Shown: one piece after another, positions 39,140 to 64,000 of the stretch
Layout: each line of letters begins with the position of its first letter
Position numbering within the stretch: position 1 is the stretch's first letter
The notes under the pieces: model-generated
Told to the model about the DNA's origin: nothing
The model's database searches: none
The model's input: only the letters and a program-made list of their open reading frames with translations
Made by a program: the position numbers and the translations under genes
From: Flavobacteriales bacterium
GTDB lineage: Bacteria; Bacteroidota; Bacteroidia; Flavobacteriales_F; PHOS-HE28
NCBI GenBank assembly: GCA_016713875.1
Contig: JADJOI010000003.1
Location: 437,092 to 501,091 of the forward strand
Length of the DNA: 64,000 nucleotides
Direction of reading: 5' to 3'

Positions 39140-40327
39140 ATGTCCATCCGCACGATCGCCGCCAGTCTGTGCCTCTTCCAGGGAGGTGTCCACGCTCAGC
39201 CGGCCAATTTCGATCCGGCCCTGGTGCGCGACCTGAGCGCCTTGTGCGCCACGCACACCTTCCGCGACCTCTATGGTTCGGACGCGGCGATCATGCCCGA
39301 GGGGTACGAACTGGTGCACACGTCCACGCCCCGCGGCATGGACAACCTGTTCCAGGTGTTCCGAAAGGGGGCGATGGGGATCATCGAGGTCCGTGGGTCC
39401 ACCGCCGACCCGTTGAGCTGGATGGAGAACATCCACGCGGCGATGCTTCCCGCCAAGGGCACGGTGGTGGTGGATGGCCGGCCCTTCGACTACCACTTCA
39501 CGGACGATACCGCGGCGGCGGTACATGCCGGCTACACCCTGGGCGTTTCCTTCCTCGCCGATGAGGTGGTGGGCCAGCTCCGCCTGCTGGACCAGCAGGG
39601 GGTGCATGACATCGTGATCACCGGGCACAGCCAGGGGGGCGCCTTGGCCCACCTGCTTCGGGCGCACCTCGAGCACCTGCCCACCACCCGGGTGTCCGCC
39701 CGTCTGCGCTTCCGTACGTACGCGTTCGCCAACCCCATGGTGGGCAACGCCGCGTTCGCGAAGTGGTATGGTGAGGCCTACTGCAGCGCGGGCACGAGCT
39801 TCAGCATCATCAATCCGGAGGACCCGGTGCCCGGGATGCCGCTGGCCTATCACGACCATCGCATTTTCTCGTCGGGCACGCTGAACGGGATGGTCTCCGG
39901 CGAGGAAGGCTATGATGTGAGGAGCGTGGCACGGAGCGCGTTGTTCCGCATGTTCCGCGGGACGCTCACCGATCTGGCGCACTACACATCGGCCTCCGTG
40001 GAGAAACGCATCGCGAAGCCGGTGGGCGAGGTGCGGCTGCCCCCGTACCGCAGCGAGATGAACTATGCGGTGATGCCGGAACGGGTGTTGCTGGACCCGT
40101 TCCCTTACCCGCTGATCCTGCGGGACAGCACCATCCTGTCGAACGATTCGATCATGCGGGCCAACCCGCGCGATGCGAACGGGGTGTTCTTGAACAAGGC
40201 GCTGTACCGCAAAGCGCCGGGCTTCTTTCAGCACAAGCCGTACAACTACTTCGTCGCCATCCTGCGGCGTTGGTTCCCGGAGCGGTACGAAGCGTTGCGC
40301 GTGAAGGTGCTGCCGGAGAATCTCTAG
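39140..40327 (+). CDS. Class 3 lipase family alpha/beta hydrolase (secreted)
   Basis: Signal peptide. Lipase_3 nucleophile elbow VITGHSQGGALAHL. Confidence 0.75.
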   Translation: MSIRTIAASLCLFQGGVHAQPANFDPALVRDLSALCATHTFRDLYGSDAAIMPEGYELVHTSTPRGMDNLFQVFRKGAMGIIEVRGSTADPLSWMENIHAAMLPAKGTVVVDGRPFDYHFTDDTAAAVHAGYTLGVSFLADEVVGQLRLLDQQGVHDIVITGHSQGGALAHLLRAHLEHLPTTRVSARLRFRTYAFANPMVGNAAFAKWYGEAYCSAGTSFSIINPEDPVPGMPLAYHDHRIFSSGTLNGMVSGEEGYDVRSVARSALFRMFRGTLTDLAHYTSASVEKRIAKPVGEVRLPPYRSEMNYAVMPERVLLDPFPYPLILRDSTILSNDSIMRANPRDANGVFLNKALYRKAPGFFQHKPYNYFVAILRRWFPERYEALRVKVLPENL

Positions 40328-41055
40328 CCGGGCGCTCCGGAGCGGATCACGTGATACCGCAGCATCACCGCCGTTCGCTGGGTGCGCTCGCCGGAGGTCC
40401 GGGCGTCCCGCATGGGTGCCGGTGCGCTCCATTCGAGGTCCTTGTCCGTGGGTGATGGCGCCAGGCCGTCGAGGTCGAACGCCAGCCAGGTGTGGTCCTC
40501 GATGCCCAGGCTGAGGATGCGACGGGCCGATCTCGAGTTCAGGTCGGCCACGGCGGTCACCAGCAGATGGCCCTCCGCCTCGCGGAAGCGGTCGCGGTCG
40601 ATGCGCGCGTAGTGGTTGTCCTTGTCGCCAGCGTACAGGCTCATGCGGACCTGGTCGGGTTCGCGGGTGCGCGGGCCCACCAGGGCGAGCGGCAGCCGAA
40701 CCTCCACTTCCAGCGCAAGGGCTTCACCGTTCAGCAGGGGAGGACGGGGAACGGAAAGCAGGCCGAGGCCGGCGATGGCGAACAAACTGCCCTGGGCCAT
40801 CACGACCGCCAGCGCTGCGGCCTTCCAGAAGCCGGACCAATCGATCGCACCGGCCAGCTTGGTGCCCAGCAGTCCGGCCAGGAAACCACCGACGAATCCT
40901 GCAGGGATGAAGAAGAACGCGATCGCGAAGCCGCGTTTGCCCTCGAAGTCGCTCACTCCCATCCGCTTCGTCACCCGATCGGACACGGGTACGGTGACCA
41001 TGGCGGTGGCGATGCCGTTCAACAGAGCGACCAAGAGAGCGACCTTCCAGGACAT
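40324..41055 (-). CDS. Hypothetical membrane protein (243 aa)
   Basis: N-terminal 4 TM helices plus soluble C-terminal domain. No motif recognised. Confidence 0.45.
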   Translation of the reverse strand: MSWKVALLVALLNGIATAMVTVPVSDRVTKRMGVSDFEGKRGFAIAFFFIPAGFVGGFLAGLLGTKLAGAIDWSGFWKAAALAVVMAQGSLFAIAGLGLLSVPRPPLLNGEALALEVEVRLPLALVGPRTREPDQVRMSLYAGDKDNHYARIDRDRFREAEGHLLVTAVADLNSRSARRILSLGIEDHTWLAFDLDGLAPSPTDKDLEWSAPAPMRDARTSGERTQRTAVMLRYHVIRSGAPG

Positions 41056-43990: not shown

Positions 43991-44767
43991 ATGGATCGGC
44001 TAGAGTTGGGATCGTACACGCTACCTGGATCGATGTTCGAACTTCGTCGAATGCAGGGTGTACAGCGCATCATGGGTCAACATCTTCTGGTGGTCACGGT
44101 CATCCTGTCGCTGGCTGTCTGCCGCACAGAGGGCTCTTCCGCCCAACAACAGGATGAGAGTAGCTGCGCGGTCCCGGACGCGTTCGTTCAACACGTGGGC
44201 CTCGTGCTCTCCGATACCACTGGCCGCTTCTTCAACGACTACCCCGCTCCCACTCCGCTTACCTGCGAACTGCTCGGCATGCTTCAAGATGAATTGAAGG
44301 ACGACAGCGTGCGCTACCACTTCGAGCATTTGCATCAACGCTTCGATGATCCGCGTGCGAACGCAGCGTTCACCTACATCAGGCGGCATAACAACTTCCA
44401 CCTCGCCATGGCGCTCACCACGCATTGGAACCCCGATACGCGCATCGAAGCGGTGAATGCAGTGGACAACTACCGCCGCATACGGCCGATGGTGTGCGCG
44501 ACAAAGGAGCACTATGGCCGCTTGGAGGAACAGGATCGCGCGGCCGTGCGTTACTTCATCAAGGTGATGGAGACCACTCCGCTATGGATCAGCGGCAGCG
44601 AGAACGCCACCATCCACAGCGTGTACATGAGCGAAGTGGTGCATGCCTTGGATCGGTTCACCGGACAAGAGCACAGTACAACGGGTGATATGCGCAGGAC
44701 ATTCGACATGCCCGAGGCCCGACTTCAACAGGCCTTGACCGATTGGCGCAACTGGTTGGAGCAATGA
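43991..44767 (+). CDS. Hypothetical protein (possibly secreted; start may be an internal Met near 44051-44075)
   Basis: ORF only. Internal hydrophobic signal-like segment MGQHLLVVTVILSLAVC. Lower GC than surroundings. Confidence 0.4.
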   Translation: MDRLELGSYTLPGSMFELRRMQGVQRIMGQHLLVVTVILSLAVCRTEGSSAQQQDESSCAVPDAFVQHVGLVLSDTTGRFFNDYPAPTPLTCELLGMLQDELKDDSVRYHFEHLHQRFDDPRANAAFTYIRRHNNFHLAMALTTHWNPDTRIEAVNAVDNYRRIRPMVCATKEHYGRLEEQDRAAVRYFIKVMETTPLWISGSENATIHSVYMSEVVHALDRFTGQEHSTTGDMRRTFDMPEARLQQALTDWRNWLEQ

Positions 44768-45279
44768 GGGCCGCGCTGTGCTGCTTGCTGCTGCTACCGA
44801 TCGCGCTTTGCGCGCAGGATGCGCAACGCTTCCAACGGGCGTTGCGCACCGGCAATGTGCATGCGCTGGACCGTTGGATGAAGCAGGAAGTACACCGCAT
44901 GCTCAAGGGCCAGGTCCACGGGGCGCCGCAAGCGGTATACATGGGTCACGACAACAGTTACGATACGCTGGTGGCATTCCTGCGCCGCCAGCCCGGCGTG
45001 CAGGATGCGGCTTGGGATAAGTACCTGGCCAAAGCTGCCATCTGGCCGGGCCACAGTACCATCGGTATGCGCTGGCAGAAGGATGATCGGATCCACGAGC
45101 GTTGCTGGAGCGTACAGGAAGGCGTCCCCCGCACCATCAACATTTTCGGCTGGCGCCCGCGGGTGCGCGAGGACAGGCAGAATTTGAGATACGAGAACGC
45201 AAGAGATTGCCCCGGTTTCGTTGAGCAGCAGAGGAAATATCCCGAACATGGAAGGCACCAAGCGCCTGCGTATCCCTGA
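44743..45279 (+). CDS. Hypothetical secreted protein
   Basis: Signal peptide MRAALCCLLLLPIALCAQ (Met at 44764). Overlaps the previous gene's end. Confidence 0.4.
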   Translation: MAQLVGAMRAALCCLLLLPIALCAQDAQRFQRALRTGNVHALDRWMKQEVHRMLKGQVHGAPQAVYMGHDNSYDTLVAFLRRQPGVQDAAWDKYLAKAAIWPGHSTIGMRWQKDDRIHERCWSVQEGVPRTINIFGWRPRVREDRQNLRYENARDCPGFVEQQRKYPEHGRHQAPAYP

Positions 45280-48104: not shown

Positions 48105-49634
48105 GTGCCGAATGATCCGTACCGTTGGGGTCCCATGCGACCATCCGTCAGCATCACCGAGGACGGCCGTTCCGGCCATGTCGTCTACAACCAAGGCCTG
48201 CGGTCCATCACCGGGTATTGGGAGTTCGGTGGCCACGACGTGGTGACCATCGTGAGCATGGGGACGCGCGCGGAGTGGGATCGTGCACACGGTTGGGCCG
48301 TAGAGCGGCGGGCGGAGATCCTGCGCTTCGTGGCCGATGAGGTGGTGCGGCAGCGGGCGCCATCGTGCACGGCGGAGATCGATCCGGAGCGTGGCGACAT
48401 CCACATCTTGCTCGGGCCGGGCCCAGGTGCTCGCAAGACCGCCGGGGTGCCTTCGCCGCAGGCCAGGTCAGCAGCGTTCGTGCGCCGGTATTCCAACCTG
48501 AAAGCCATGGTCGGACTCGGGATCCTTGTCGCGACGGTCCTCATCGGCGGCGTGCTCTGGCTCGGCAAGAAGGCGCTCACCGTGTCGCCGGTGAGCGGTG
48601 TGCCGCTGAACGACTGCGTGCGCACGGACACGCACATCGCCTCGCTCATCCAGACCACCGATCCGCATATGGTGGAGATCAGCGGACGCGGCGGCAACAC
48701 CACCACCAGCCTCAGCATCCTGCTCATTCCGCTTGATGGCACGGAACCCTTCGTGGTGCCTTTCGCCCGGGAGGTCGACGGCAACGGCTACACCCTGTCG
48801 CGCATCCTGGGCAGCGACGGGCGCACGCTCTGGTTCGACTGCATGGGCCTGCACGGTGTTCACCTGCGCGACGGCACGCTCGTGACGGCGGATGACCTGA
48901 CGACCGCGAACCCGGGCTTGCCGCCGCGCTGGTGGGAGGATGCCCGCGGCACGGACATCGTGGACGGGAAGTTGCACCTGATCAACGACGACCGCAGCGC
49001 GGCCATGGACCTGGACCCTGATACCTGGAAGGCCACGCCGGTGGCGCCCAAGCCGTCCAACGACCGCTTCCAGCGCCACGAACCCACCGACCAGCTGGCG
49101 TCCGGCCTGATCACTCCGGGCGGCACCTGGCTTGGCCTGCACGCCCCGGAAGAGCTCGAAAGCAACTTCAAGGTGGGCCAGTGGGTGCGCCGGGTGGAGA
49201 ACGCCGAGGATGCCAAGCGCGAGCGGCGGTTGTGCCGTGGGGAGCTGGAGCGCGGGTCCGACGCCGATCACTTCCGCATCCGCGGCATCGCGCCCCTCGG
49301 TGACAGTGCGTACCTGAACGCGGCCTTCCTGCGCCTGCATGCCAGGGCGGAGCCGTTGCGCCTCTCCGACCCCGAGAGCGTGCTGATGGTGCATACGGAC
49401 AAGCCGGGCCTGGGCGGCCGGCTCATCGTGTCGCGCGTGGACCTGGACGGAAAGGCGATCTGGCGCACGGAGACCGCTCTGGACCGCTACACCGTTTCCC
49501 AGATCCTGCCCGGCGCCGCGGCCTTCGCCTTTGTGGGCACACGGCCACCCGTGGAAGGCAAGTTGAGCGAGCCTTTCGTGGTGCTGGTGGACAACGCCAC
49601 CGGGAGGTTGACGGTGCATTCGCTGTGGCGCTGA
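48105..49634 (+). CDS. Hypothetical membrane-anchored protein (cytoplasmic N-domain, single TM, large extracytoplasmic domain)
   Basis: 509-aa ORF. TM helix MVGLGILVATVLIGGVLWLG about residue 145. No motif recognised. Confidence 0.45.
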   Translation: MPNDPYRWGPMRPSVSITEDGRSGHVVYNQGLRSITGYWEFGGHDVVTIVSMGTRAEWDRAHGWAVERRAEILRFVADEVVRQRAPSCTAEIDPERGDIHILLGPGPGARKTAGVPSPQARSAAFVRRYSNLKAMVGLGILVATVLIGGVLWLGKKALTVSPVSGVPLNDCVRTDTHIASLIQTTDPHMVEISGRGGNTTTSLSILLIPLDGTEPFVVPFAREVDGNGYTLSRILGSDGRTLWFDCMGLHGVHLRDGTLVTADDLTTANPGLPPRWWEDARGTDIVDGKLHLINDDRSAAMDLDPDTWKATPVAPKPSNDRFQRHEPTDQLASGLITPGGTWLGLHAPEELESNFKVGQWVRRVENAEDAKRERRLCRGELERGSDADHFRIRGIAPLGDSAYLNAAFLRLHARAEPLRLSDPESVLMVHTDKPGLGGRLIVSRVDLDGKAIWRTETALDRYTVSQILPGAAAFAFVGTRPPVEGKLSEPFVVLVDNATGRLTVHSLWR

Positions 49635-50925: not shown

Positions 50926-51117
50926 GTTCTGCGAAGCACGGCACCGCGTGTGAAAGTGCCTTTGCTACGGGCCCAGTGCACAGCGCCGGTGGACTTGTCA
51001 GTGCTGCACGATGAAACGGCGCCTCAGGTTGTCAGGGAGGCCAAGTGCCACGGCAACATAGCTGCCGTCGGGCACGCGAGGATGCACTGGCCGGCCTTTG
51101 GTAATAGCACGTTCCTG

Positions 51118-51150
<33 letters not shown>

Positions 51151-54344: not shown

Positions 54345-54899
54345 ATGATCGCCCTCATCATCGGAGCCGTTCTCCTGCTCCTTGTGTTCTACGCCATCGG
54401 CATCTACAACAAGCTGGTGAAGTTGAAGAACCTGGTGGCCGAGGCGTGGAGCGGCATTGATGTGCAGTTGAAGAAGCGCTACGACCTGATCCCCAACCTG
54501 GTGGAAACGGTGAAGGGCTACGCCGCGCATGAGAGGGAGACCTTCGAGAGCGTGACCCGAGCGCGCGCCGCCGCACAGCAGGCCACCACGGTGGAGGGCC
54601 ATCAGGCCGCCGAGAAGCAGCTGAGCAGCGCTCTCATGAACCTGATCGCCGTCGCCGAGCGCTACCCCGAGCTGAAGGCCAATACCAACTTCCTGGAGCT
54701 GCAGACCACCCTGGCGCAGATCGAAGGTGATCTCGAGAAGTCCCGCCGCTACTACAACGGCAACGTACGCGAGCAGAACACCCTCATCGAGAGCTTCCCC
54801 AGCAACCTCATCGCCAACGCGTTCGGCTTCGTGAAGTCGGTGTTCTTCGAACTGGAGAACCCCGCGGAGAAGCAGAACCCACAGGTCAAGTTCTCGTGA
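54345..54899 (+). CDS. lemA: LemA family protein
   Basis: N-terminal TM. Conserved LemA sequence (YNKLVKLKNLVAEAWSGIDVQLKKRYDLIPNLVETVKGYAAHE...RRYYNG). Confidence 0.85.
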   Translation: MIALIIGAVLLLLVFYAIGIYNKLVKLKNLVAEAWSGIDVQLKKRYDLIPNLVETVKGYAAHERETFESVTRARAAAQQATTVEGHQAAEKQLSSALMNLIAVAERYPELKANTNFLELQTTLAQIEGDLEKSRRYYNGNVREQNTLIESFPSNLIANAFGFVKSVFFELENPAEKQNPQVKFS

Positions 54900-56611
54900 T
54901 GCGCCGCTGGCTGTTGCTGGCTTCGCTGGTGGGCGGGATGCATGCCCACGGCCAGACCGAGAAGATCAACGCGTGGCACACGGACCTCACCGTGGCGCCC
55001 GACGGGCGGCTCACGGTCACTGAGGCGATCAACGTACACGTGGAGGGCGTCGAGTTCAAGCGCGGCATCGTACGGAAGTTGCCGCTCCGCTTCACGGACC
55101 ACAACGGTCGCACGCACCACGTGAAGTACGACCTGCAGGCGGTACAGGTGTTCGGCGCCACCAGTCCGTACCACACCGCCACCGAGGGCGACGACTTCGT
55201 GGTTTACGTGGGCAGCGAGGGCAACTTCCTACAGCCCGGCGACTATCCATACACCCTTACGTACACCACCAAGGGCCAGCTCGGCTTCTTCCCCGACTTC
55301 GATGAGATCTACTGGAACGTGAACGGGAATGGGTGGGCCTTCACGGTGGACAGCATCTCGGCGCTGATCCACCTGCCTTCACCTGCGAATGTCAAGAAGA
55401 CGGCCTGTTACACGGGTGTGCTTGGTTCCACGGAGAACGCGTGCCGCGACAGCGCGATCGATGCGCACACGGTGTACTTCACCGGCCGCGCCCTGGACAT
55501 GTACGAAGGTCTTACCGTGGCCGTGGGCTTCCAGAAGGGCGTGGTGGTCGAGCCGCCACGGCCCACCTTCTGGGAGGAGCACGCCATTCCGCTGGTCGGA
55601 GGGGGCATCACCCTCTTGCTGCTGATCTACTACCTCATCACGTGGATCCGCTTCGGCCGCGATCCCGACACGCCGACGGTGATCCCTTTGTTCGAGGCGC
55701 CTGACGGCCTTTCTCCCGCCTCGGTGGCCATGGTGATGAAGGGCGGTGAGGACAACGACCAGATCACACCGGCCATGATCCATCTGGCCGTGAAGGGGTA
55801 CGTCCGCATCGAGGAGAAGAAGGAGGATGTGCTGCTGGGCCTGTTCTCCAAACGGACCTACACCATCCGGAAGCTTAAGGGAGGATCAGGCTTGCCGAAG
55901 GAAGAACAGGCGCTGCTGAACAGCATGTTCGGCTCCGGACGGGACCGCTTCGAGTTCGATGGCTCGTACGATCCCAGCGTACAGTCCATGGCCAGTTCCT
56001 TCCGGTCCTCCCTGCGCCACCAGTGGCATGGCTTTTTGAACGCGGGCAAGAACCTGCGCTTCTGGTGGATCCCCATCCTCACGGTGGTGGTGTGCGGCGT
56101 CGCGCTGCTCGTGCTCTATGCCAGCTCATGGGGCGACAACGATGGGCTCTACATCGCGGCCTTCCTCGTGGCCAATCTGGTGCTCTTCTTGTTGTACCAG
56201 TACCTCATCCGCAAGCCTAGCGTGGAGAAACTGGCCCTGCGTGCGCGCTTGCGCGGTTTCCGGATGTACCTGAGCGCCGCGGAGGAGAGGCAGCTCCAGC
56301 ACTTCAACCCGCCCGCCATGACACCGGAAGTGTTCGAGCACTGCCTGCCCTACGCCATCGCCTTCGGCGTGGAGGAGGTCTGGGGCGAGCGCTTCCAGTC
56401 GATGATCGACAAGGCACTGGTTGATCCCAACTACCGCACCACGTGGTACAGCGGCTCCGTGATGAATTATGGATCCTTCTCGCACAGCATGAGCAGTTCG
56501 TTCTCCCGCAGTGTGCAGAGCAGCAGTACGCCGCCCAGCAAGAGCGGGGGCTCCGGTGGCGGCGGTTCGTCCGGTGGCGGCGGCGGCGGCGGTGGGGGCG
56601 GGGGCTGGTAG
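54896..56611 (+). CDS. DUF2207 domain membrane protein (LemA partner) with Gly-rich C-terminal tail
   Basis: Signal peptide. Extracytoplasmic DUF2207-like N-domain, TM helices, then C-terminal SGGSGGGGSSGGGGGGGGGGGW. Start overlaps the lemA stop. Confidence 0.75.
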   Translation: MMRRWLLLASLVGGMHAHGQTEKINAWHTDLTVAPDGRLTVTEAINVHVEGVEFKRGIVRKLPLRFTDHNGRTHHVKYDLQAVQVFGATSPYHTATEGDDFVVYVGSEGNFLQPGDYPYTLTYTTKGQLGFFPDFDEIYWNVNGNGWAFTVDSISALIHLPSPANVKKTACYTGVLGSTENACRDSAIDAHTVYFTGRALDMYEGLTVAVGFQKGVVVEPPRPTFWEEHAIPLVGGGITLLLLIYYLITWIRFGRDPDTPTVIPLFEAPDGLSPASVAMVMKGGEDNDQITPAMIHLAVKGYVRIEEKKEDVLLGLFSKRTYTIRKLKGGSGLPKEEQALLNSMFGSGRDRFEFDGSYDPSVQSMASSFRSSLRHQWHGFLNAGKNLRFWWIPILTVVVCGVALLVLYASSWGDNDGLYIAAFLVANLVLFLLYQYLIRKPSVEKLALRARLRGFRMYLSAAEERQLQHFNPPAMTPEVFEHCLPYAIAFGVEEVWGERFQSMIDKALVDPNYRTTWYSGSVMNYGSFSHSMSSSFSRSVQSSSTPPSKSGGSGGGGSSGGGGGGGGGGGW

Positions 56612-57705: not shown

Positions 57706-57847
57706 GGGGCGAAGAGAGTGGCGCAAAGGTCGCTTGCGCCACGAAGGTGGAACGCGCCGCGAAAGGTGGCTGTCCGTGCTATCCGGGTCCGCGGCATAGG
57801 CTACTTTCGGCAGTATCCTCCTTACCTCTCTCCCAGCTTCCCCGCGA

Positions 57848-58852
57848 ATGAACCCCTCCACATTGCAACAGATCACCGGCACCATCAGCGCCGGTCTCGC
57901 CACGCTGCTTTTCTTCCTACGACTTCTGCCATTCCTAGCTGAATGGGTCAACAAGGAGACGAACAGCGACCGATGGGCGGCACCCGCCGTGAACATCCTC
58001 GCATCCATCTGGGGGCTGATGATGGTCGCGCTGCTCTGCATGACCGCCAGCGGTGGTTTCGACTGGATCCGACTGGGACGCGGCAAGCTCTACCTGCTCA
58101 CCGTAGCTGCTTCGTTCGCGCTGGCGTGCGCTTCCTACCTGTTCATCGGCCTGTATCTCCGCCCCGGCTTCACGCCGCGCGGCCTCTACAGTCCGTTCCT
58201 CTACCTCATCCTGTTCACCACCGTGCTGCTGGTGGTGGTGAGCTTGAACCAGAAGCTCGTGCCCGGAGTGTCCGTGCAATGGTTGCTTCGGCCATGGACG
58301 TGGTTCACCGCCTTGAGCCTTGTGGGCAGCCTGATCTTCTCCGGCAAATGGGTCATCAACAACAGCGGTCGCGGTCTGGCCGACGTCACCACGCGGATCA
58401 TCGTCCTCTTGCCAGCGACCAAAGAAGAGCTCGCCGAGATCGAACGGCTCGATCCGAAGAACGATCTCGAAAAGCTGGTCTGGAAGGCGAGCCTTGTTGA
58501 GAAACCGGCCGTGTGCGAGGCTGCCACGGCTCGCCTGCGTTCGGATCCGGAGTTCCTGGAGCGAATGGCCGCCATGCTGGATTCAGGCTACGCGGAACCT
58601 GCGCTGGCGTTCGTGCGCGATGCGGAGTTGACACCCGAGGAAACATCCCGCTTTGCTCGCCCCACGCTGAACGCCTTGGGGCGCTGGGTGAACAGTGCAG
58701 CCGCGCCCAACTTCACGACGTCGGAGAACCTGAAGCGTACGCGGCGTTGGGGCGATGAGATGTTCCAGGTCCTCCCCGAGAAGTTCGCCGGCACCGGCGT
58801 TGACTTCTCCGAGCTGCAGGGGTGGTACAAGGAGAAGATGGAATTGGAATAG
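57848..58852 (+). CDS. Hypothetical integral membrane protein (5-6 TM N-terminal, about 150-aa soluble C-terminal domain)
   Basis: ORF with clear TM segments. No recognisable motif. First gene of a two-gene cassette. Confidence 0.5.
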   Translation: MNPSTLQQITGTISAGLATLLFFLRLLPFLAEWVNKETNSDRWAAPAVNILASIWGLMMVALLCMTASGGFDWIRLGRGKLYLLTVAASFALACASYLFIGLYLRPGFTPRGLYSPFLYLILFTTVLLVVVSLNQKLVPGVSVQWLLRPWTWFTALSLVGSLIFSGKWVINNSGRGLADVTTRIIVLLPATKEELAEIERLDPKNDLEKLVWKASLVEKPAVCEAATARLRSDPEFLERMAAMLDSGYAEPALAFVRDAELTPEETSRFARPTLNALGRWVNSAAAPNFTTSENLKRTRRWGDEMFQVLPEKFAGTGVDFSELQGWYKEKMELE

Positions 58853-58871
58853 TGGATCCACGCACGGACCG

Positions 58872-60026
58872 ATGACGACCGCCGATCCCTTCCGCCAGCA
58901 GCTCGCGGAATTCCCTGCGCCCTTGCGCGAACTCGTGGAAGCTGAGATCCAGGCAGGCAACAGCATCGTGGCCATCGAGAACGGCTTTCCCGCTGCGCCG
59001 TGCGGAGCTTCCGTGAAACTGGCGAAGGCCGTCCAGGAGGAACACCGGCGATCGATAGGAGAGGTGCGATTCTACGCGCGCAACAACTCCTCCTACGCGG
59101 GCGAATTCACCACCGAGCAACGGCACTTCTTCGTGCTGGAGCCGCCGCTGCCGCCGGAGCCACCGCCGGACATGGACGCCATCCGCAAGGCGCTGCAGCC
59201 GAACCCGGACGTGTTATCTACCTTGTCCCAGCGGGAAGCAGGCTCGGGGGTGGAGTTCGGTAGGGCACTGTTGGATGAGCGCATGGCGGAACAAAAAGCG
59301 AACGCACGGGCACGCGCACTGTCGATCACGGAAACCGCCACCAGCGCGAAACGCCTGCTGCATTTCAACGACCATCGCGCACCGCACGAGATCCAGTTCG
59401 CGCTGGAGCGGGACCTCATGACGCTCTTCGACGCCGCCATGAAGGACGACCGCCTGATCATGACGGCCAGTTCCAAGGTGGTCGGTTCGTGGCATCACTT
59501 CACGCTGCGCTTCGAGGCGGCGATGCCCAACACCAATTGCTATTCGTTGTGCGTGGAGACCTCCTGGGCCGATGCGGCGGCCACGCACCACGACTATTAC
59601 CGGCACACGGCAGGAACGTGGTTCGAGCACTGGACGCGCGATCTCCAGCCCGCCGAACCGCCCGAAGCCGATGAAGGATCAGCCGAGCGCTACCAGAAGA
59701 TCTGCGCCGCATCGATGAACGCCGAAGCACATCTCGATACCGTACCCGCGATCCAACGAACGATCGTGGCGGCAATGAAAAGCGGCGCACGGTTCACCAC
59801 CTCGCACAAGGAGGGTGGCACGAACATCACGTGGAACCATGAGCGTTTCGTGCGCTCCGACTACGGCGATTACCCGGATCACATCACCTACGCGAGCGAG
59901 GCGCACTTCTTGGAAGCGCTGCGGAAATTCTACGACTGGGAGACCTCGCAGAACGTGTACCCGGAAAAGGTCTCGGAGCTGGTGGCGTGGAGGCTGATGC
60001 TAAGGTTGATGCGGGGGTTGCGTTGA
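58872..60026 (+). CDS. Hypothetical soluble protein (385 aa)
   Basis: ORF 19 bp downstream of the membrane protein gene. No motif recognised. Start at MTTADPF. Confidence 0.5.
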   Translation: MTTADPFRQQLAEFPAPLRELVEAEIQAGNSIVAIENGFPAAPCGASVKLAKAVQEEHRRSIGEVRFYARNNSSYAGEFTTEQRHFFVLEPPLPPEPPPDMDAIRKALQPNPDVLSTLSQREAGSGVEFGRALLDERMAEQKANARARALSITETATSAKRLLHFNDHRAPHEIQFALERDLMTLFDAAMKDDRLIMTASSKVVGSWHHFTLRFEAAMPNTNCYSLCVETSWADAAATHHDYYRHTAGTWFEHWTRDLQPAEPPEADEGSAERYQKICAASMNAEAHLDTVPAIQRTIVAAMKSGARFTTSHKEGGTNITWNHERFVRSDYGDYPDHITYASEAHFLEALRKFYDWETSQNVYPEKVSELVAWRLMLRLMRGLR

Positions 60027-60085
60027 CCATTGGGGGGCACAACGGCAGATCGATCCAACTATCTTTGAGCAACACACGAACGAAT

Positions 60086-60337
60086 ATGTCCTTCACCAAT
60101 AAACCCTCGGTGGCCCTCACGCTCGATCAAGTGATGGAGATCGTGGACCAGCTATCCCCGGCTGATACGCTGAAGGTGGCCAAGCACATCAAGAAGAAGA
60201 ACAAGGATGCGGACCTTGATGATCTGATCGCGATCTTCAGCAAGGTGAAGATGAGCGAGAAGGAAATGACGGCTATCGTAGAGGACGTCCGAGCTGAACG
60301 CTATGCCCGCGAGAAAGCGCGTTACGCTGGTCGTTGA
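60086..60337 (+). CDS. Putative antitoxin of the PIN toxin (83 aa)
   Basis: Small basic protein immediately upstream of and overlapping the PIN gene. AT-richer codon usage than the host average. Confidence 0.5.
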   Translation: MSFTNKPSVALTLDQVMEIVDQLSPADTLKVAKHIKKKNKDADLDDLIAIFSKVKMSEKEMTAIVEDVRAERYAREKARYAGR

Positions 60338-60725
60338 TGTCAATGTGTTGGTGAGCATGCTCATCAACCATGACACCGCAGGGATCAAGTGGTTGTTCAA
60401 CAAGCAAGCCTTCCGGGTGATGGTCTCATCCGGATTGTTGGGTGAGTTGGAAGAAGTCCTGATGCGACCGCAGTTCAGGCGCTACCTCACGTTGGCTGAA
60501 GCCGATCGGGCCGTGGATCGGATAGCGAACCGGTCAAGCCTGGTAGAGACTGCCTTCCAAGTGCGCCCCATCTGCCGCGACCCGAAGGACGACTACTTGC
60601 TCGCGCTGGCCAAGAAGGGCAAAGCCGACTTCCTGATCACCGGCGATGACGATCTACTCGTGCTGAAGAAACACGGCAAGACCCGGATCCTGAAACCTGC
60701 TGCATTCAGGAAGGAGTTCTTGTGA
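60303..60725 (+). CDS. PIN-domain toxin (type II toxin-antitoxin system, VapC-like ribonuclease)
   Basis: VVDVNVLVSML N-terminal acidic motif. Conserved Asp residues (DPKDDYL, ITGDDD) of the PIN fold. 140 aa. Confidence 0.75.
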   Translation: MPARKRVTLVVDVNVLVSMLINHDTAGIKWLFNKQAFRVMVSSGLLGELEEVLMRPQFRRYLTLAEADRAVDRIANRSSLVETAFQVRPICRDPKDDYLLALAKKGKADFLITGDDDLLVLKKHGKTRILKPAAFRKEFL

Positions 60726-60744
60726 GCGCCCATGATCAGCGACC

Positions 60745-61470
60745 AACCCGTGCCTTCGGCAGGCAGGTGCGCGATGAGCTGCTGACCTTCTCGCCTTTGC
60801 GTAGCCGCTTCGGCGGAGCAAGGCCGCAAGGAGCCACGACAAGACGCCCTTCCACAACCTGCGGACGCACTCCACGAGCAGCAGCCCCGGGCGGCGACCC
60901 GGGGGAAGCCGCCGAGCGCGGGGTGCCACGGCCAACCTCGTTCCGGCGGCATCGTCCCGGCGCGTCGGGACGACCCTGCGGGCGAGCGTCCTCGTTCGGC
61001 CATCCGGCTCCCGCTGTGTCGGGATGAAACAGTTGCTCCTCGATCGGAGACTTCGCTCCAGTATCCTCACTCGTCGCGCCCCTGCCTGCGGCAGGCAGGT
61101 TGGCTGGCCGAACGATCACCGCTCGTGCCATCCGTTCGAGGTTGGCCGAGGCACCCTTGGAGCACACCCAATGGGCCAAGGATGCCGACCTGCTGCGCCT
61201 TCGCGTAGCCGCTTCGGCGGAGCAAGGCCCACCCTTGCCGCCGAGCATCGACCCCCGGTCCACGAACCGGGGCTGGCCGAGGAGATGGCCGACATTGCAG
61301 GCCGCAGAACTGTCACGTCGGGCGGAGCCGAGACGTACCTCGCACATGACCTGCACGTGGACCTCGAAACCGCCGCCTGCCTCCGGCAGGTAAATGCGCC
61401 AGAAGCTGGTGACCAACGCCGCCAAGTACCCCGTGCCTCGCCAAGCCGTAGCTTCAGCGAAGGCTGGGAA
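60745..61470. repeat. Non-coding repeat-rich region: dispersed short direct repeats and palindromic cctgcc-N1-3-ggcagg hairpins
   Basis: gcgtagccgcttcggcggagcaaggcc at 60800 and 61203. cggcaggcaggt at 60755 and 61088. Perfect 19-nt palindrome cctgcctgcggcaggcagg at 61081-61099. cctgcctccggcagg at 61376-61390. No protein-like ORF. Confidence 0.6.
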
Positions 61471-61937: not shown

Positions 61938-63047
61938 ATGGCCAACCTCACCAACATCCGCCCGGCACAGGTCTTTCCACCTGGGTACTTCATCAAGGAC
62001 CAACTGGAACAGCGCCAATGGAATCAGAACGAACTGGCCGAAGTACTGGGCATTACTCCTCGCCATCTAAGCCAAGTGATGAACGGCGAAGCACCGCTCA
62101 ACTACGACCTGGCCATCCAACTCGGACAAGTCTTCGATACCAGCCCGCAGCTTTGGTCGAACCTCTATCTGAGCTATGCAATGTGGAACGAAGAAGCAGA
62201 AGAGGAAGCCAGTGCTACGGAAGTCAAGGCGGGCATCTACGAGCGCATGCCGATCCGCGACATGGTGAAGAAGGGCTGGCTGAAGGAGCCCAAGAATTTG
62301 AAGGATCTCGGGCAGCAAGTGGCCAAGTTCTGGGGAAAGGATGACGCTGACCTGTCCTTCATAGATACGGAGTACTCGCCCTGCCTGAATAGGAGCACCA
62401 CCTCTAAGGCGAACCAGTACAACACCAGCTATGCGCTGACGTGGTACCGCAAGGCGAGCATGTGCGCGGAGAAACGGGAAGTACCTACCTACAACAAGAA
62501 GAAGCTGGAAAGCCTGTATGACAACCTCTACTCGTACACCGCCAAGACAGCGAGCATCAAAGTCTATCTGGAGAAACTTAACGAGTGTGGTGTCAAGTTC
62601 CTCGTGCTGCCCCACTTGGAGAAGACCTATCTCGATGGCGCAGCCTTCAAGCAAGGGAGCAACCCGGTAGTGGTGTATACGGCCCGTTATAAGCGCATCG
62701 ACAGCTTCTGGTTCACGTTGGCGCATGAGATCGCGCATGTGCTGTTGCATCTCGACAAGCAACGCCCGATCATTCTGGATGATCTGCACGAAGGAGAAGC
62801 GACCGAGATGGAGAAGGAAGCGAACGAGTTAGCTGGGGAGAAGCTCCGCCACGCGGAGATCGCAGCCCGCTTCCGTGATTCAGGACAAGTACACCCGAAG
62901 CGGATCGAGGCCTGCGCGCAGCTCTATGGCGTACATCCATCCATCGTAGCGGGCAAGCTGGCACATGATGGATTGGCTGGGTATCGCGTGGTGCAGCGGT
63001 ATAGTGAGGATGTGCTGGGGCATATCCCAAGAAGCTACTTGAACTAG
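61938..63047 (+). CDS. higA: HigA-like antitoxin: N-terminal XRE-family HTH fused to ImmA/IrrE (M78) zinc metallopeptidase domain
   Basis: HTH (QNELAEVLGITPRHLSQVMNGE). HExxH zinc motif in WFTLAHEIAHVLLH. 369 aa. Confidence 0.8.
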   Translation: MANLTNIRPAQVFPPGYFIKDQLEQRQWNQNELAEVLGITPRHLSQVMNGEAPLNYDLAIQLGQVFDTSPQLWSNLYLSYAMWNEEAEEEASATEVKAGIYERMPIRDMVKKGWLKEPKNLKDLGQQVAKFWGKDDADLSFIDTEYSPCLNRSTTSKANQYNTSYALTWYRKASMCAEKREVPTYNKKKLESLYDNLYSYTAKTASIKVYLEKLNECGVKFLVLPHLEKTYLDGAAFKQGSNPVVVYTARYKRIDSFWFTLAHEIAHVLLHLDKQRPIILDDLHEGEATEMEKEANELAGEKLRHAEIAARFRDSGQVHPKRIEACAQLYGVHPSIVAGKLAHDGLAGYRVVQRYSEDVLGHIPRSYLN

Positions 63048-63049
63048 GA

Positions 63050-63477
63050 AGCCGTCACGGGCATCCTCGATGCCGCGCTGGTTACCGCCCACGCTGAAAG
63101 GCTGGCACGGTGGACCACCGATCACGATGTCTGCCTGCGGAAAGTCGAAGCCGACCTCGAGTTTAACAGCGTAGCACTCGCTGCCCAAGTTGTGGCGGCA
63201 GCTGGCGGCCGCCGAGCCTGCCCCGGCCCCAGAGCCGGGGTTCATCTCGAAGCCGATGGTCTTGTAGCCAGCGTCCGCCGTACGGCGGACCAAGGCCAAG
63301 CCACCGCAGCCATGCCTACGCTGAAGCTTCGGCAGGCAGGCCCGCGAACAGGTCCAGCACCACCCGGCCTTTCTCTTCAGTAAGGCGTTGTCTTGGATAG
63401 GCCTCCTCCTCGGTAGGCGCGCCTGCCTGCCGAAGGCAGGGCACCAACAACTCATTGATCTCCTCGATATATCCCAT
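63050..63477 (-). pseudogene. DNA (cytosine-5)-methyltransferase remnant: frameshifted in motif I and truncated after motif IV
   Basis: Motif I is split between two frames (RVVLDLFAG| in one, |CGGLALV in the other, separated by about 31 nt containing cctgcctgccgaag). Motif IV GGPPCQPFSVGGNQRGIEDARDGF is intact. Similarity ends at about 63050, exactly at the 3' end of the higA gene. Confidence 0.6.
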
Positions 63478-63600
63478 CACACGCTGCCAATCTTTTCTTA
63501 GCCGCCATAGCGCTTTGGCGAAGGCGGCTTGGCGATCGGCGTGGTGACAAAGTAAGCTCCGTTGAGATCCATCAACGTTGAGCACCTTTCTTTGAGGAAC

Positions 63601-64000
63601 ATGAAGTTCTGGGCCGGCGTCACCGACAACGATTGGTACACCTTCCTCTCCGCACGCGGGTTGGATGAGGTGAACTTCTGGCGGCCATCGCCGGGGCCTT
63701 ACTTCACGGGCTTGCCAGCGGGAACGCCGTTCCTGTTCAAGTTGAAGGCTCCGAACAACCACATCGCGGGTGGCGGCTTCTTCGTGCAGTACTCATCGCT
63801 TCCGTTGGAAATGGCGTGGGATGCGTTCGGGGAGAAGAACGGTATGCCCACGTTCCGCGACTTCGATCGGAAGATCCGTGATTACCGGAAGCTGCCCAAG
63901 GGACCATTGGAGATGGGTTGCAATGTGCTGGTGCAGCCGTTCTTCTTTCCGAGGGAACGGTGGATCGAATTGCCGACGTGGCCCAAGGCGGTGGTGCAGG
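63601..64000 (+). CDS. Partial ORF (5' part; runs off the window), hypothetical, possibly restriction-associated
   Basis: ATG at 63601. Translation MKFWAGVTDNDWYTFLSARGLDEVNFWRPSPGPYF... stays open to the window end. Divergent from the methyltransferase remnant. Confidence 0.4.
   Translation, partial: MKFWAGVTDNDWYTFLSARGLDEVNFWRPSPGPYFTGLPAGTPFLFKLKAPNNHIAGGGFFVQYSSLPLEMAWDAFGEKNGMPTFRDFDRKIRDYRKLPKGPLEMGCNVLVQPFFFPRERWIELPTWPKAVVQ

Follow-up and report, generated by a model that had tools for sequence, protein, structure and literature searches.

Genes A and B of this Flavobacteriales genome form what we take, at a probability of roughly 60%, to be a co-transcribed backbone pair, the reduced version of a membrane-associated gene cluster that other phyla carry as an operon of about ten genes. 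The two genes occupy positions 57848..58852 and 58872..60026 of the 64,000-nucleotide stretch of contig JADJOI010000003.1 analysed here, hereafter the window. Both encode proteins of undescribed families. A first-pass annotation, which worked from the letters of the window alone, had read them as a two-gene cassette at the edge of an island of toxin-antitoxin (TA) and methyltransferase genes and, from this setting, had nominated them as a candidate defence or abortive-infection (Abi) system. Does a neighbourhood of this kind say anything about the genes that border it?

Both ORFs were confirmed, co-directional on the plus strand and 19 bp apart, at the coordinates first assigned to them. Gene A encodes 334 residues; gene B encodes 384 residues plus a stop codon, and not the 385 originally counted. 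A longer alternative ORF for B opens at 58755, yet all 48 aligned homologues (48/48) begin at the residue equivalent to 58872. A and B are genuine genes and not chance ORFs, since they have 262 and 489 database relatives (for B, 509 clusters at 50% identity) and evolve with dN/dS ratios of 0.2–0.5 and 0.15–0.26, respectively. The 19-nt gap between them holds no terminator-like site. Could the two be functionally unrelated conserved hypothetical genes, neighbours by chance? In several phyla B is found in the absence of A, and the physical interaction of A with B is one that we infer. The roughly 11 loci of other phyla that have B and no A, together with one in which A is truncated, mean that A is not an obligate partner of B. 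Against a chance arrangement, A and B are neighbours in 20 of the 37 non-redundant loci whose B is full-length, which takes in essentially all Flavobacteriales loci, usually with gaps of 23–31 nt; across about 25 Flavobacteriales genomes the adjacency persists, at 19–31 nt, down to 54% identity for A. Even in other phyla A and B share one operon, there with genes X1 and X2 between them. We find a chance neighbourhood scarcely credible.

Gene A encodes a polytopic membrane protein. Its AF2 model (pLDDT 75) consists of five long helices (residues 5–172) followed by an all-helical soluble domain (176–331). The first-pass annotation had given A five to six N-terminal helices and a soluble tail; the tail is there, and the count was slightly high, as hydropathy yields four strong TM segments and a weaker fifth. 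We delimit the membrane domain, from AF2 helices, hydropathy and loop charges, at 57860..58363 (residues 5–172) and the C-terminal domain at 58373..58849 (residues 176–334), both on the plus strand. The loop between TM3 and TM4 carries the invariant motif RPGFTPRG, with invariant alignment columns P106-G107-F108-T109-P110. The positive-inside rule leaves the orientation of A ambiguous, so that the C-domain may lie on either side of the membrane; should the fifth helix be membrane-spanning, the helical domain would be periplasmic and thus face away from B. Resemblance of this domain to helical repeats was noted (HEAT/ARM-type repeats were considered). We also asked whether it is homologous to the helical "Hc" domain that is joined to the N-terminal module of B in other phyla, a Rosetta-stone link that was rejected (hhalign probability 0.9%). 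All-against-all hhalign among the cluster members revealed no hidden kinship beyond a weak hint between the C-terminal domains of A and X2 (probability 14%, E 0.002). The consensus of the Bacteroidota -7 promoter box is TAnnTTTG, and a low-confidence candidate box, TACTTTCG, read by eye with one mismatch, lies at 57802..57809 (plus strand), 38 nt 5' of the A ATG. A sigma-70 promoter scan, a type of scan ill-suited to Bacteroidota, gave no match.

Gene B encodes a soluble protein of three modules (AF2 pLDDT 81). It lacks a hydrophobic N-terminus, in keeping with the earlier view that it has no signal peptide. The alpha/beta N-module (58872..59195, residues 1–108) bears the motifs GFPAAPCGA and YxRN..GEFT..R.FFVLEP. 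A Pro/Ala-rich linker follows (59196..59318, residues 109–149), predicted to be disordered (pLDDT below 50 for residues 109–145) and aligning in variable, gapped columns. The M+C module (59319..60023, residues 150–384) comprises two alpha+beta sub-domains, modelled at pLDDT above 90, with the motifs HF.D.RPP.E..LER, WF..WTR, HKEGG and DYG[DE]. All three features are on the plus strand. Aligned over 15 kb with the near-identical genome L089, the window shows 68 differences, of which 31 fall at 59030..59354 (plus strand) and mark a recombination tract inside B.

The modules of B are found in several other settings. The N-module occurs alone or joined to other C-terminal domains, such as Hc; the M+C module occurs free-standing, tail-anchored, or joined to a TM helix and a domain resembling the protein family PA2928. 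In P0270, P0303, P0315, P0304 and P0376 the C-module is followed by one or two TM helices, and in P0244, P0266, P0297, P0307 and P0333 by a TM helix and the domain of gene X3. A Pfam scan of the fusion partners returned one informative case only, AIG2/GGACT in P0331. Among cultured isolates, Paludibaculum fermentans T20B24 (L063) and Aquabacterium humicola RJY3 (L085) carry a relative of the B C-module.

Homology searches assigned neither protein to a family. A and B gave no match in Pfam, NCBIfam, PADLOC or PHROGs, which agrees with the earlier statement that they have no recognisable catalytic motifs; against PADLOC-DB v2.0 they hit 0 families at E≤1. PDB sequence-profile searches with the complete A and B proteins and with the two B modules returned noise only, and a Pfam scan of 36 diverse C-module proteins found no match, including to DUF1795, Imm and SUKH families. 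The predicted folds of A and B have generic structural matches only, the M+C module falling weakly into the YwmB/DUF1795/PsbP-like class. This likeness admits a reading in which B serves segments of membrane proteins as a chaperone or holdase, similar to Eag/DUF1795 proteins, and binds TM helices ahead of insertion, be they those of A or those of X1/X2/X3. B is indeed always encoded next to polytopic membrane proteins. The structural matches are weak, however, KA1, SRPBCC, PsbP and TBP-like folds serving equally well, no DUF1795 HMM matches B, and the module can be fused directly to a TM anchor, unlike the soluble Eag chaperones. We consider such an activity highly improbable.

Where in the genome do A and B belong? 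Upstream of the pair are genes for LemA and DUF2207 proteins (54345..56611, plus strand; Pfam), syntenic neighbours that serve as backbone markers. Synteny of LemA-DUF2207 with A-B holds in at least 10 genomes, one of them a closed 4.48-Mb chromosome (loci L001, L008, L011, L016, L017, L020, L021, L024, L086, L087, L089 and L093), and is almost confined to Flavobacteriales; a literature search for LemA and DUF2207 together found no relevant report. B diverges in parallel with DUF2207 (72–86% versus 70–89% identity) at similar dN/dS. A-B sits at the syntenic site in all Flavobacteriales loci examined, while the flanking cargo varies.

On the 3' side of B the picture is reversed. The first cargo of the island, outside A-B, is a putative antitoxin gene with a PIN_3 toxin gene (60080..60725, plus strand; Pfam), which starts 53 nt after the B stop codon; among the compared loci it is common only to L021, and it is also present in the near-identical L089. 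The downstream context described in the first-pass annotation was recovered: PIN_3, a HigB-like toxin, HTH_3 with Peptidase_M78, and a fragment of a C5 DNA-methylase. The true TA modules (PIN_3, HigB/HTH-M78) thus begin 3' of B. This region differs in every genome, with TA modules, methylases, Mrr, rve, BsuBI/PstI, HNH and TIR genes. In six loci (L007, L015, L019, L024, L086 and L088) a diverged copy of the B 3' end lies beyond the first inserted genes; four aligned copies are 76–93% identical, and in the four loci read the genes between B and the copy are TA cassettes. The window downstream of B and the first 10 kb of L089 yielded no such copy, the signature being known only from other genomes. 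There is no tRNA or tmRNA as island target within 10 kb, and the sequence beside the small cassettes revealed no integrase. As the genes 3' of B vary by genome and diverged 3'-end copies lie beyond the inserts, we read the 3' end of B as the border of an integration hotspot. A-B is then very likely vertically inherited chromosomal backbone, the flank of the hotspot and not its cargo.

This result bears directly on the proposal that sees in A-B an undescribed defence or Abi pair directed against phages. Here soluble B would sense infection and membrane-bound A would act as effector, in the manner of Kiwa, a two-gene defence system made up of a multi-TM protein (KwaA) and a soluble one (KwaB). 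TA, restriction-modification or defence genes adjoin A-B in every Flavobacteriales genome examined, the architecture of a TM protein with a multi-domain soluble protein suits the idea, and the identity between phyla (50–70%, with the proviso that some MAG contig taxon labels may be binning errors) suggests horizontal transfer, which is commoner for accessory functions such as defence and immunity. Since B marks the hotspot edge, however, the neighbourhood is weak evidence about A-B: the accumulation of TA and defence genes at a hotspot bordered by the B 3' end explains the surroundings noted earlier, with the defence genes as the variable part and A-B as the invariant flank. Neither A nor B contains a nuclease, NTPase, TIR, Sir2, protease or similar effector or sensor domain, and PADLOC matches are lacking for both and for the partner proteins tested. 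No TA Pfam domain was found in A (334 aa) or B (384 aa), which places the pair outside the type II TA/Abi definition. Relatives of B are absent from plasmids, phages and IMG/VR, and those of A from plasmids and IMG/VR; the genes evolve under purifying selection in parallel with their neighbours; and in other phyla they belong to a ten-gene operon among housekeeping genes. The step from the setting to the nomination therefore does not stand, and we judge a defence role quite improbable. Of the two observations that would have spoken for an ordinary cellular function, conserved non-defence neighbourhoods in other genomes were found and homology to known housekeeping proteins was not, the latter agreeing with a defence role as well. 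The earlier reading of a two-gene cassette at the edge of a TA/methyltransferase island was, by contrast, correct, and the two genes do co-occur in other genomes.

What, then, are A and B part of? In Verrucomicrobiota and several other phyla they lie within an operon of about ten genes in the order G1-G2-G3-G4-A-X1-X2-B(-X3). At least 12 loci, drawn from several phyla, preserve this order; housekeeping genes flank the operon, and there are no recognised defence genes. Parts of the cluster are present in Bacteroidota, Verrucomicrobiota, Planctomycetota, Gemmatimonadota, Acidobacteriota and Burkholderiales. No member of the extended cluster matches a Pfam family, and G1, G2 (two forms), G3, G4, X1, X2, the N-module/Hc fusion, X3 and the X3-like ORF of the window matched 0 PADLOC-DB v2.0 families at E≤0.1. 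Opitutaceae loci have tandem paralogous genes for the B N-module, and repeated modules or tandem paralogues occur in L067, L076 and L078.

Such repetition invites comparison with polyimmunity loci directed against interbacterial toxins. B would then be a fusion of three immunity-like domains, with A, X1 and X2 as membrane immunity proteins against membrane-targeting effectors. The three modules of B, which occur apart and in varied fusions, the tandem N-module paralogues of Opitutaceae, the small alpha+beta domains devoid of catalytic motifs, a weak fold likeness to DUF1795/Eag proteins of T6SS loci and a phyletic spread resembling horizontal transfer would all fit. Gene order, however, is conserved across phyla, which argues for one multi-subunit unit rather than for immunity genes selected one by one. 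The annotated neighbourhoods contain no gene for a toxin, Rhs, PAAR or T6SS/T9SS effector, no Imm or SUKH Pfam family is matched, and polar motifs (HKEGG, D.RPP.E) are strongly conserved. We consider polyimmunity unlikely.

Does the window retain other parts of the cluster? ORF 48105..49634 (plus strand) encodes a 509-aa protein with a 130-residue N-terminal domain that lacks a Pfam match, a TM helix and an X3/PA2928-like domain. It is 32% identical to X3 (tblastn, E 2e-43) and matches the NCBIfam model NF041516 (PA2928_fam) with 56.8 bits (E 2.4e-15), X3 itself scoring 47 bits (E 2.3e-12); both scores are below the 70-bit cut-off, and the matches span model positions ~95–372 of 376. By sequence comparison, X3 and this ORF are significant but distant relatives of PA2928, below the threshold of the family. 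The ORF is probably a functional partner of A-B, because other phyla have B modules with this type of domain attached. A second ORF, at 40324..41055 on the minus strand, encodes a 243-aa membrane protein that has no Pfam match and is weakly akin to the N-terminal half of X2 (tblastn, 24% identity, E 1.5e-10); it is possibly a remnant of the extended cluster. For PA2928, an otherwise uncharacterised protein, a literature search found passing mention only, in a review that cites an altered colistin MIC of a mutant. The colistin phenotype and the linkage to LemA/DUF2207 are faint hints at a role in the envelope.

We propose the following for A-B as a reduced backbone pair. The Flavobacteriales genes would be the small form of the widespread cluster G1-G2-G3-G4-A-X1-X2-B(-X3), transcribed together, and their products, like those of the cluster, would on balance form a membrane-associated complex. 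B may act as a cytoplasmic, non-enzymatic adaptor of three separable modules, placed on the inner side of the cytoplasmic membrane. Membrane attachment of its M+C module would come, in other lineages, from a C-terminal TM anchor of its own or from a TM helix leading to a periplasmic PA2928-like domain; in the present lineage polytopic A would supply the membrane element in trans, and the PA2928-like domain would be encoded separately at 48105..49634. An envelope-related role, structural or sensing, would suit this complex best, an assignment that we regard as rather doubtful for now. The 3' end of B would double as the fixed border of the hotspot at which TA and defence genes gather. More broadly, A-B with G1–G4, X1, X2 and X3 may constitute an undescribed, horizontally spread multi-subunit membrane system of about ten proteins, with A-B as the minimal core in Flavobacteriales. 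Such a system may be an envelope machine or a sensing apparatus of a new type or, with lower probability, a novel kind of immunity system. This wider proposal is tentative, and we give it somewhat less than even odds.

These findings indicate that guilt by association misleads when the gene in question is the fixed border of a defence island, and that border genes should be detected by genome comparison before they are nominated as defence candidates. They also connect A-B with a conserved operon, about ten genes long and distributed over at least five phyla, that has no Pfam match and passes no curated family cut-off. Its newness lies in the lack of any assignable family and not in a demonstrated new mechanism. 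Should the operon work as one machine, a substantial part of the envelope biology of abundant wastewater and freshwater bacteria would still be unexplored. The hotspot at the B 3' end, in turn, can be used as a marker to collect TA and defence cargo from these uncultured Flavobacteriales.

How does A-B compare with known systems? Like Kiwa-type pairs, it combines a polytopic protein with a soluble partner, encoded by close, co-directional genes beside defence genes. Unlike them, it is syntenic and conserved instead of patchy, belongs elsewhere to a ten-gene operon with housekeeping flanks, and has no PADLOC match, a difference to be read with care as the library may lack KwaA/KwaB models. With the class of YwmB (B. 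subtilis, PDB 2fpn), DUF1795, PsbP-Mog1 and TBP-like proteins (SciW/Eag, DcrB, PA0094), B shares no sequence or HMM kinship; TM-scores reach at most 0.44, KA1 and SRPBCC folds do equally well, and B has an N-module and a linker in addition. T6SS effectors with TM helices at the N-terminus (Rhs/PAAR), as would accompany DUF1795/Eag proteins, are absent from every Pfam-annotated neighbourhood. X3 and the ORF of the window share with the PA2928 family (NF041516) the layout of a TM helix and a domain of ~340 residues, a likeness that belongs to the partner domain and not to A or B.

The closest parallel to the genomic setting is offered by defence-carrying mobile elements that, as reported by Hochhauser, Millman & Sorek 2023 (PMC10121019), integrate at dedicated hotspots with cargo differing among strains. 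Like the core-gene-flanked hotspots of that account, the site described here has a fixed chromosomal position and changing defence and TA cargo. It differs from them, as far as they are portrayed there, in that short diverged duplications lie beyond small cassettes, with no adjoining integrase or nearby tRNA, and in that a protein-coding gene of an undescribed family forms the border with its 3' end.

Do genes A and B belong to the island that follows them, or to the chromosome? The two open reading frames, A (57848-58852, forward strand, 334 aa) and B (58872-60026, forward strand, 384 aa), are co-directional and 19 nt apart, as the first-pass annotation had described, although B is one residue shorter than the 385 aa reported there. 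No terminator-like hairpin was found in the 19-nt gap, and a weak candidate Bacteroidota-type -7 box, TACTTTCG, lies at 57802-57809, 38 nt upstream of the A start. The methionine encoded at 58872 is the start in 48/48 aligned homologues, which disfavours a longer B frame from 58755 that overlaps A. Neither protein matched any model in Pfam, PADLOC, NCBIfam or PHROGs, in line with the initial impression that both lack recognisable catalytic motifs.

A large protein database holds 489 relatives of B and 262 of A. Named matches come almost throughout from Flavobacteriales MAGs, many with adjacent locus tags, and locus L089 (GCA_016720105.1, contig JADJXU010000006.1) shares 99.55% identity with the window over 15 kb. 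The first-pass annotation had staked its pairing on co-occurrence elsewhere. Among 37 non-redundant loci with full-length B, 20 have A directly upstream of B and another 5 have it at a different place in the locus; in two Flavobacteriales loci of the remainder (L087, L088) the A gene call is merely split or shortened, and in one locus (L003/L004) A is cut down to an 88-aa remnant. That the two genes are neighbours by chance is very improbable given this conservation. In at least 10 genomes, one of them a closed 4.48-Mb chromosome, LemA-DUF2207 lies upstream of A-B across a variable spacer of 0.2 to 5.6 kb. B identity (72-86%) runs in step with that of DUF2207 (70-89%); the dN/dS ranges are 0.15-0.26 (B), 0.2-0.5 (A), 0.13-0.26 (DUF2207) and 0.06-0.15 (LemA). 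A and B are real, paired genes, and we estimate at roughly 85% the probability that they belong to the chromosomal backbone rather than to the island cargo.

The two partners differ in one respect. Compared with the window, copies of A form two identity classes, ~77-83% and ~54-65% (L012, L014, L020, L021 and L024 versus the rest), with dN/dS of up to ~0.5 in the divergent class, whereas B shows no such split. The two classes may stem from allelic replacement, or from selection on A that is relaxed or diversifying. One MAG carries two A-B copies (L011 and L028, JADKHI01 contigs 1 and 2); the second has apparent frameshifts in both genes, which may reflect pseudogenes or indels in the long-read assembly.

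How far does the pair extend beyond the Flavobacteriales? Searching one genome per species, we found B relatives in Verrucomicrobiota, Planctomycetota, Gemmatimonadota, Acidobacteriota, Burkholderiales and an 'Armatimonas' MAG, with matches that cover only the N-module, only the M+C module or only the C sub-domain. Some environmental MAGs are probably mislabelled, for example as 'Akkermansia muciniphila' or 'Bifidobacterium', so this phyletic breadth is approximate. At these loci A and B are part of an operon whose genes all point the same way, in the consensus order G1-G2-G3-G4-A-X1-X2-B (or a B-N variant), often followed by X3, and this order is present in at least 12 loci. The further members are G1 (142 aa), G2 (171-399 aa), G3 (~233 aa), G4 (~92 aa, three TM helices), X1 (~434 aa), X2 (~422 aa) and X3 (~376 aa, a TM helix plus a ~340-aa domain); none of the cluster's members matched Pfam or PADLOC. 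Partial clusters occur in Bacteroidota: L029 (G2-G3-G4-A-B), L022 (G4-A-B) and L071. The flanks are housekeeping genes, e.g. dnaN, rsgA, mraW, purH and leuS. An immunity-type locus would fit the shuffling of B modules and the tandem B-N paralogues; the gene order is conserved, however, and no toxin gene appeared in the annotated neighbourhoods, and we consider such a locus rather unlikely. In the 'Armatimonas' locus B is directly followed by a 200-aa ORF (L005:11168-11770) whose D...E-A-K motif looks, on visual inspection, like that of a PD-(D/E)xK nuclease.

The DNA downstream of B differs in each genome examined. In the window, the genes that the first-pass annotation had listed there are present: a putative antitoxin with a PIN_3 toxin, a HigB-like toxin, an HTH_3+Peptidase_M78 protein and a C5 DNA methylase fragment. 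L089 carries antitoxin/PIN, HigBA, HNH, radical-SAM, CAP12-type TIR, methylase and ParB genes; L086, AraC, a PIN TA module, methylase and HATPase; L087, rve, a BsuBI/PstI restriction enzyme, HNH and MazG; L088, a RelE TA module, Mrr and AAA_15/DUF3696; L001, a TA module, Mrr and RlaP; and L093, RelE, DUF433, PIN and ParE TA modules, an N6/N4 methylase and IS110. Within one multi-locus comparison the window's antitoxin-PIN module was common only to L021, and L089 has antitoxin/PIN too.

Past the first inserted genes, a fragment matching the 3' end of B was found in six loci: L007, L015, L019, L024, L086 (~13669) and L088 (~11780). We read the insert contents in the first four (L007:11147-11848, L015:2673-3643, L019:11153-14039, L024:11129-12590). 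Small TA cassettes, encoded on the other strand, are present in these inserts (DUF433-like with PIN-like, HicAB, RelE-like with an antitoxin), L019 having further ORFs as well, and each insert ends in a divergent duplicate of the last 90-570 nt of B (76-93% identity). This arrangement suggests cassette capture through recombination at the 3' end of B. Of the 68 differences that separate the window from L089 over 15 kb, 31 lie within 325 nt of B (59030-59354, the N-module end and linker, with 8 amino-acid changes), which looks like an imported recombination tract. No tRNA was found near the island. The changing downstream DNA and the 3'-end copies past the inserts together indicate, at the level of sequence comparison, that the 3' end of B is the fixed border of a recombination hotspot, with A-B as its flank.

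GC-rich short repeats and palindromes, e.g. CTTCGGCAGGCAGG, occupy 60744-61401 and 63327-63441, including a 34-nt repeat at 60792 and 61196 (97% identity). They fill the spacer downstream of the PIN gene, turn up again where the methylase is broken, and look like REP or MITE elements. On the reverse strand, 62880-63762 holds two overlapping ORFs, one matching Pfam DNA_methylase at positions 54-95 only, including the GGPPCQPF motif IV, and the matching stretch of L089 is mostly without gene calls; both are consistent with a decayed C5 methyltransferase.

The first-pass annotation had moved from this neighbourhood to a candidate defence or abortive-infection pair. Position at the island and signs of horizontal transfer speak for that proposal. 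Yet A and B stay together as a constant flank while the defence genes after B change from genome to genome, no PADLOC match or other defence or effector domain was found, gene contexts in other lineages are housekeeping rather than defence, and searches returned no relatives of B in phages, plasmids or IMG/VR and none of A in plasmids or IMG/VR. The step does not hold, and a defence role is unlikely. The island neighbourhood carries little information on what A and B do.

What, then, might the backbone pair A-B do? The AF2 model of A, built from a 46-sequence alignment (pLDDT 75), shows five long helices (residues 5-172) and, after them, a soluble domain built entirely of helices (176-331, pLDDT 80-92). 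By hydropathy, four TM segments are strong and a fifth (148-168) is weaker, so the proposed multi-TM N-terminal part and soluble tail stand, with fewer firm helices than the 5-6 first counted. Loop charges did not decide between the two orientations; the RPGFTPRG loop between TM3 and TM4 is invariant in the alignment. B (predicted model, overall pLDDT 81) comprises an alpha/beta N-module (1-108), a disordered Pro/Ala-rich linker (109-149) and an M+C module of two tightly predicted alpha+beta sub-domains (150-384, pLDDT >90). Weak fold matches are the basis for regarding B as an Eag-like chaperone, which we find quite improbable.

X3 is a distant member of the NCBIfam 'PA2928 family' (E 2e-12). 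In P0244, P0266, P0297, P0307 and P0333, B or its modules form the N-terminal part of a fusion with X3. Frequently, too, the C-module has only one or two TM helices after it (P0270, P0303, P0304, P0315, P0376). In the window, an X3-type protein (48105-49634, forward strand, 509 aa) consists of a ~130-aa N-terminal domain without a Pfam match, followed by a TM helix and then the PA2928-like domain found joined to B modules in other phyla. A 243-aa membrane protein (40324-41055, reverse strand) is a weak relative of the X2 N-terminal half (24% identity, E 1.5e-10); similar matches are present in L008 and L024. Adjacent ORFs at 43991-44767 (258 aa) and 44743-45279 (178 aa), both forward, had no Pfam match at E<=0.1. 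Translation of the ORF that begins at 51098 gives ...CHTHTHTHTHTP... (~51110-51150), which implies a short (CA)n-type dinucleotide repeat either at the beginning of a secreted-protein gene or upstream of it.

B has no signal peptide, as first noted, and its modules lie N-terminal to the TM helix in fusions; we therefore take them to be cytoplasmic and membrane-proximal. In the lineage of the window, B has no anchor of its own, yet is always encoded beside polytopic A. A split arrangement is proposed, in which A would supply the membrane element, B would act from the inner face as a non-enzymatic adaptor, and a separate gene would encode the periplasmic PA2928-like domain. A, B and the PA2928-like protein may form an envelope-associated structural or sensing complex. 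The sequence comparisons show directly that B is modular, that its modules occur in fusions, that the operon and the synteny exist and that the genes are under selection; contact between A and B, their topology and the envelope role are inferences.

Neither A nor B shows any defining feature of a known family. The pair is assignable to no described kind and is new in that limited sense, not as a mechanism; its worth lies in an operon of undescribed proteins that is conserved across several phyla, and in the clear border that it gives the island. The sole family-level link, a distant one, is to the PA2928 family, by way of the partner domain X3 rather than A or B. In the part of the literature available to us, PA2928 of P. 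aeruginosa is an uncharacterised protein known only through a mutant with altered colistin MIC. The border at the 3' end of B, with its changing cargo, is comparable to the dedicated integration hotspots at which defence-carrying mobile elements insert in E. coli, as described in PMC10121019.
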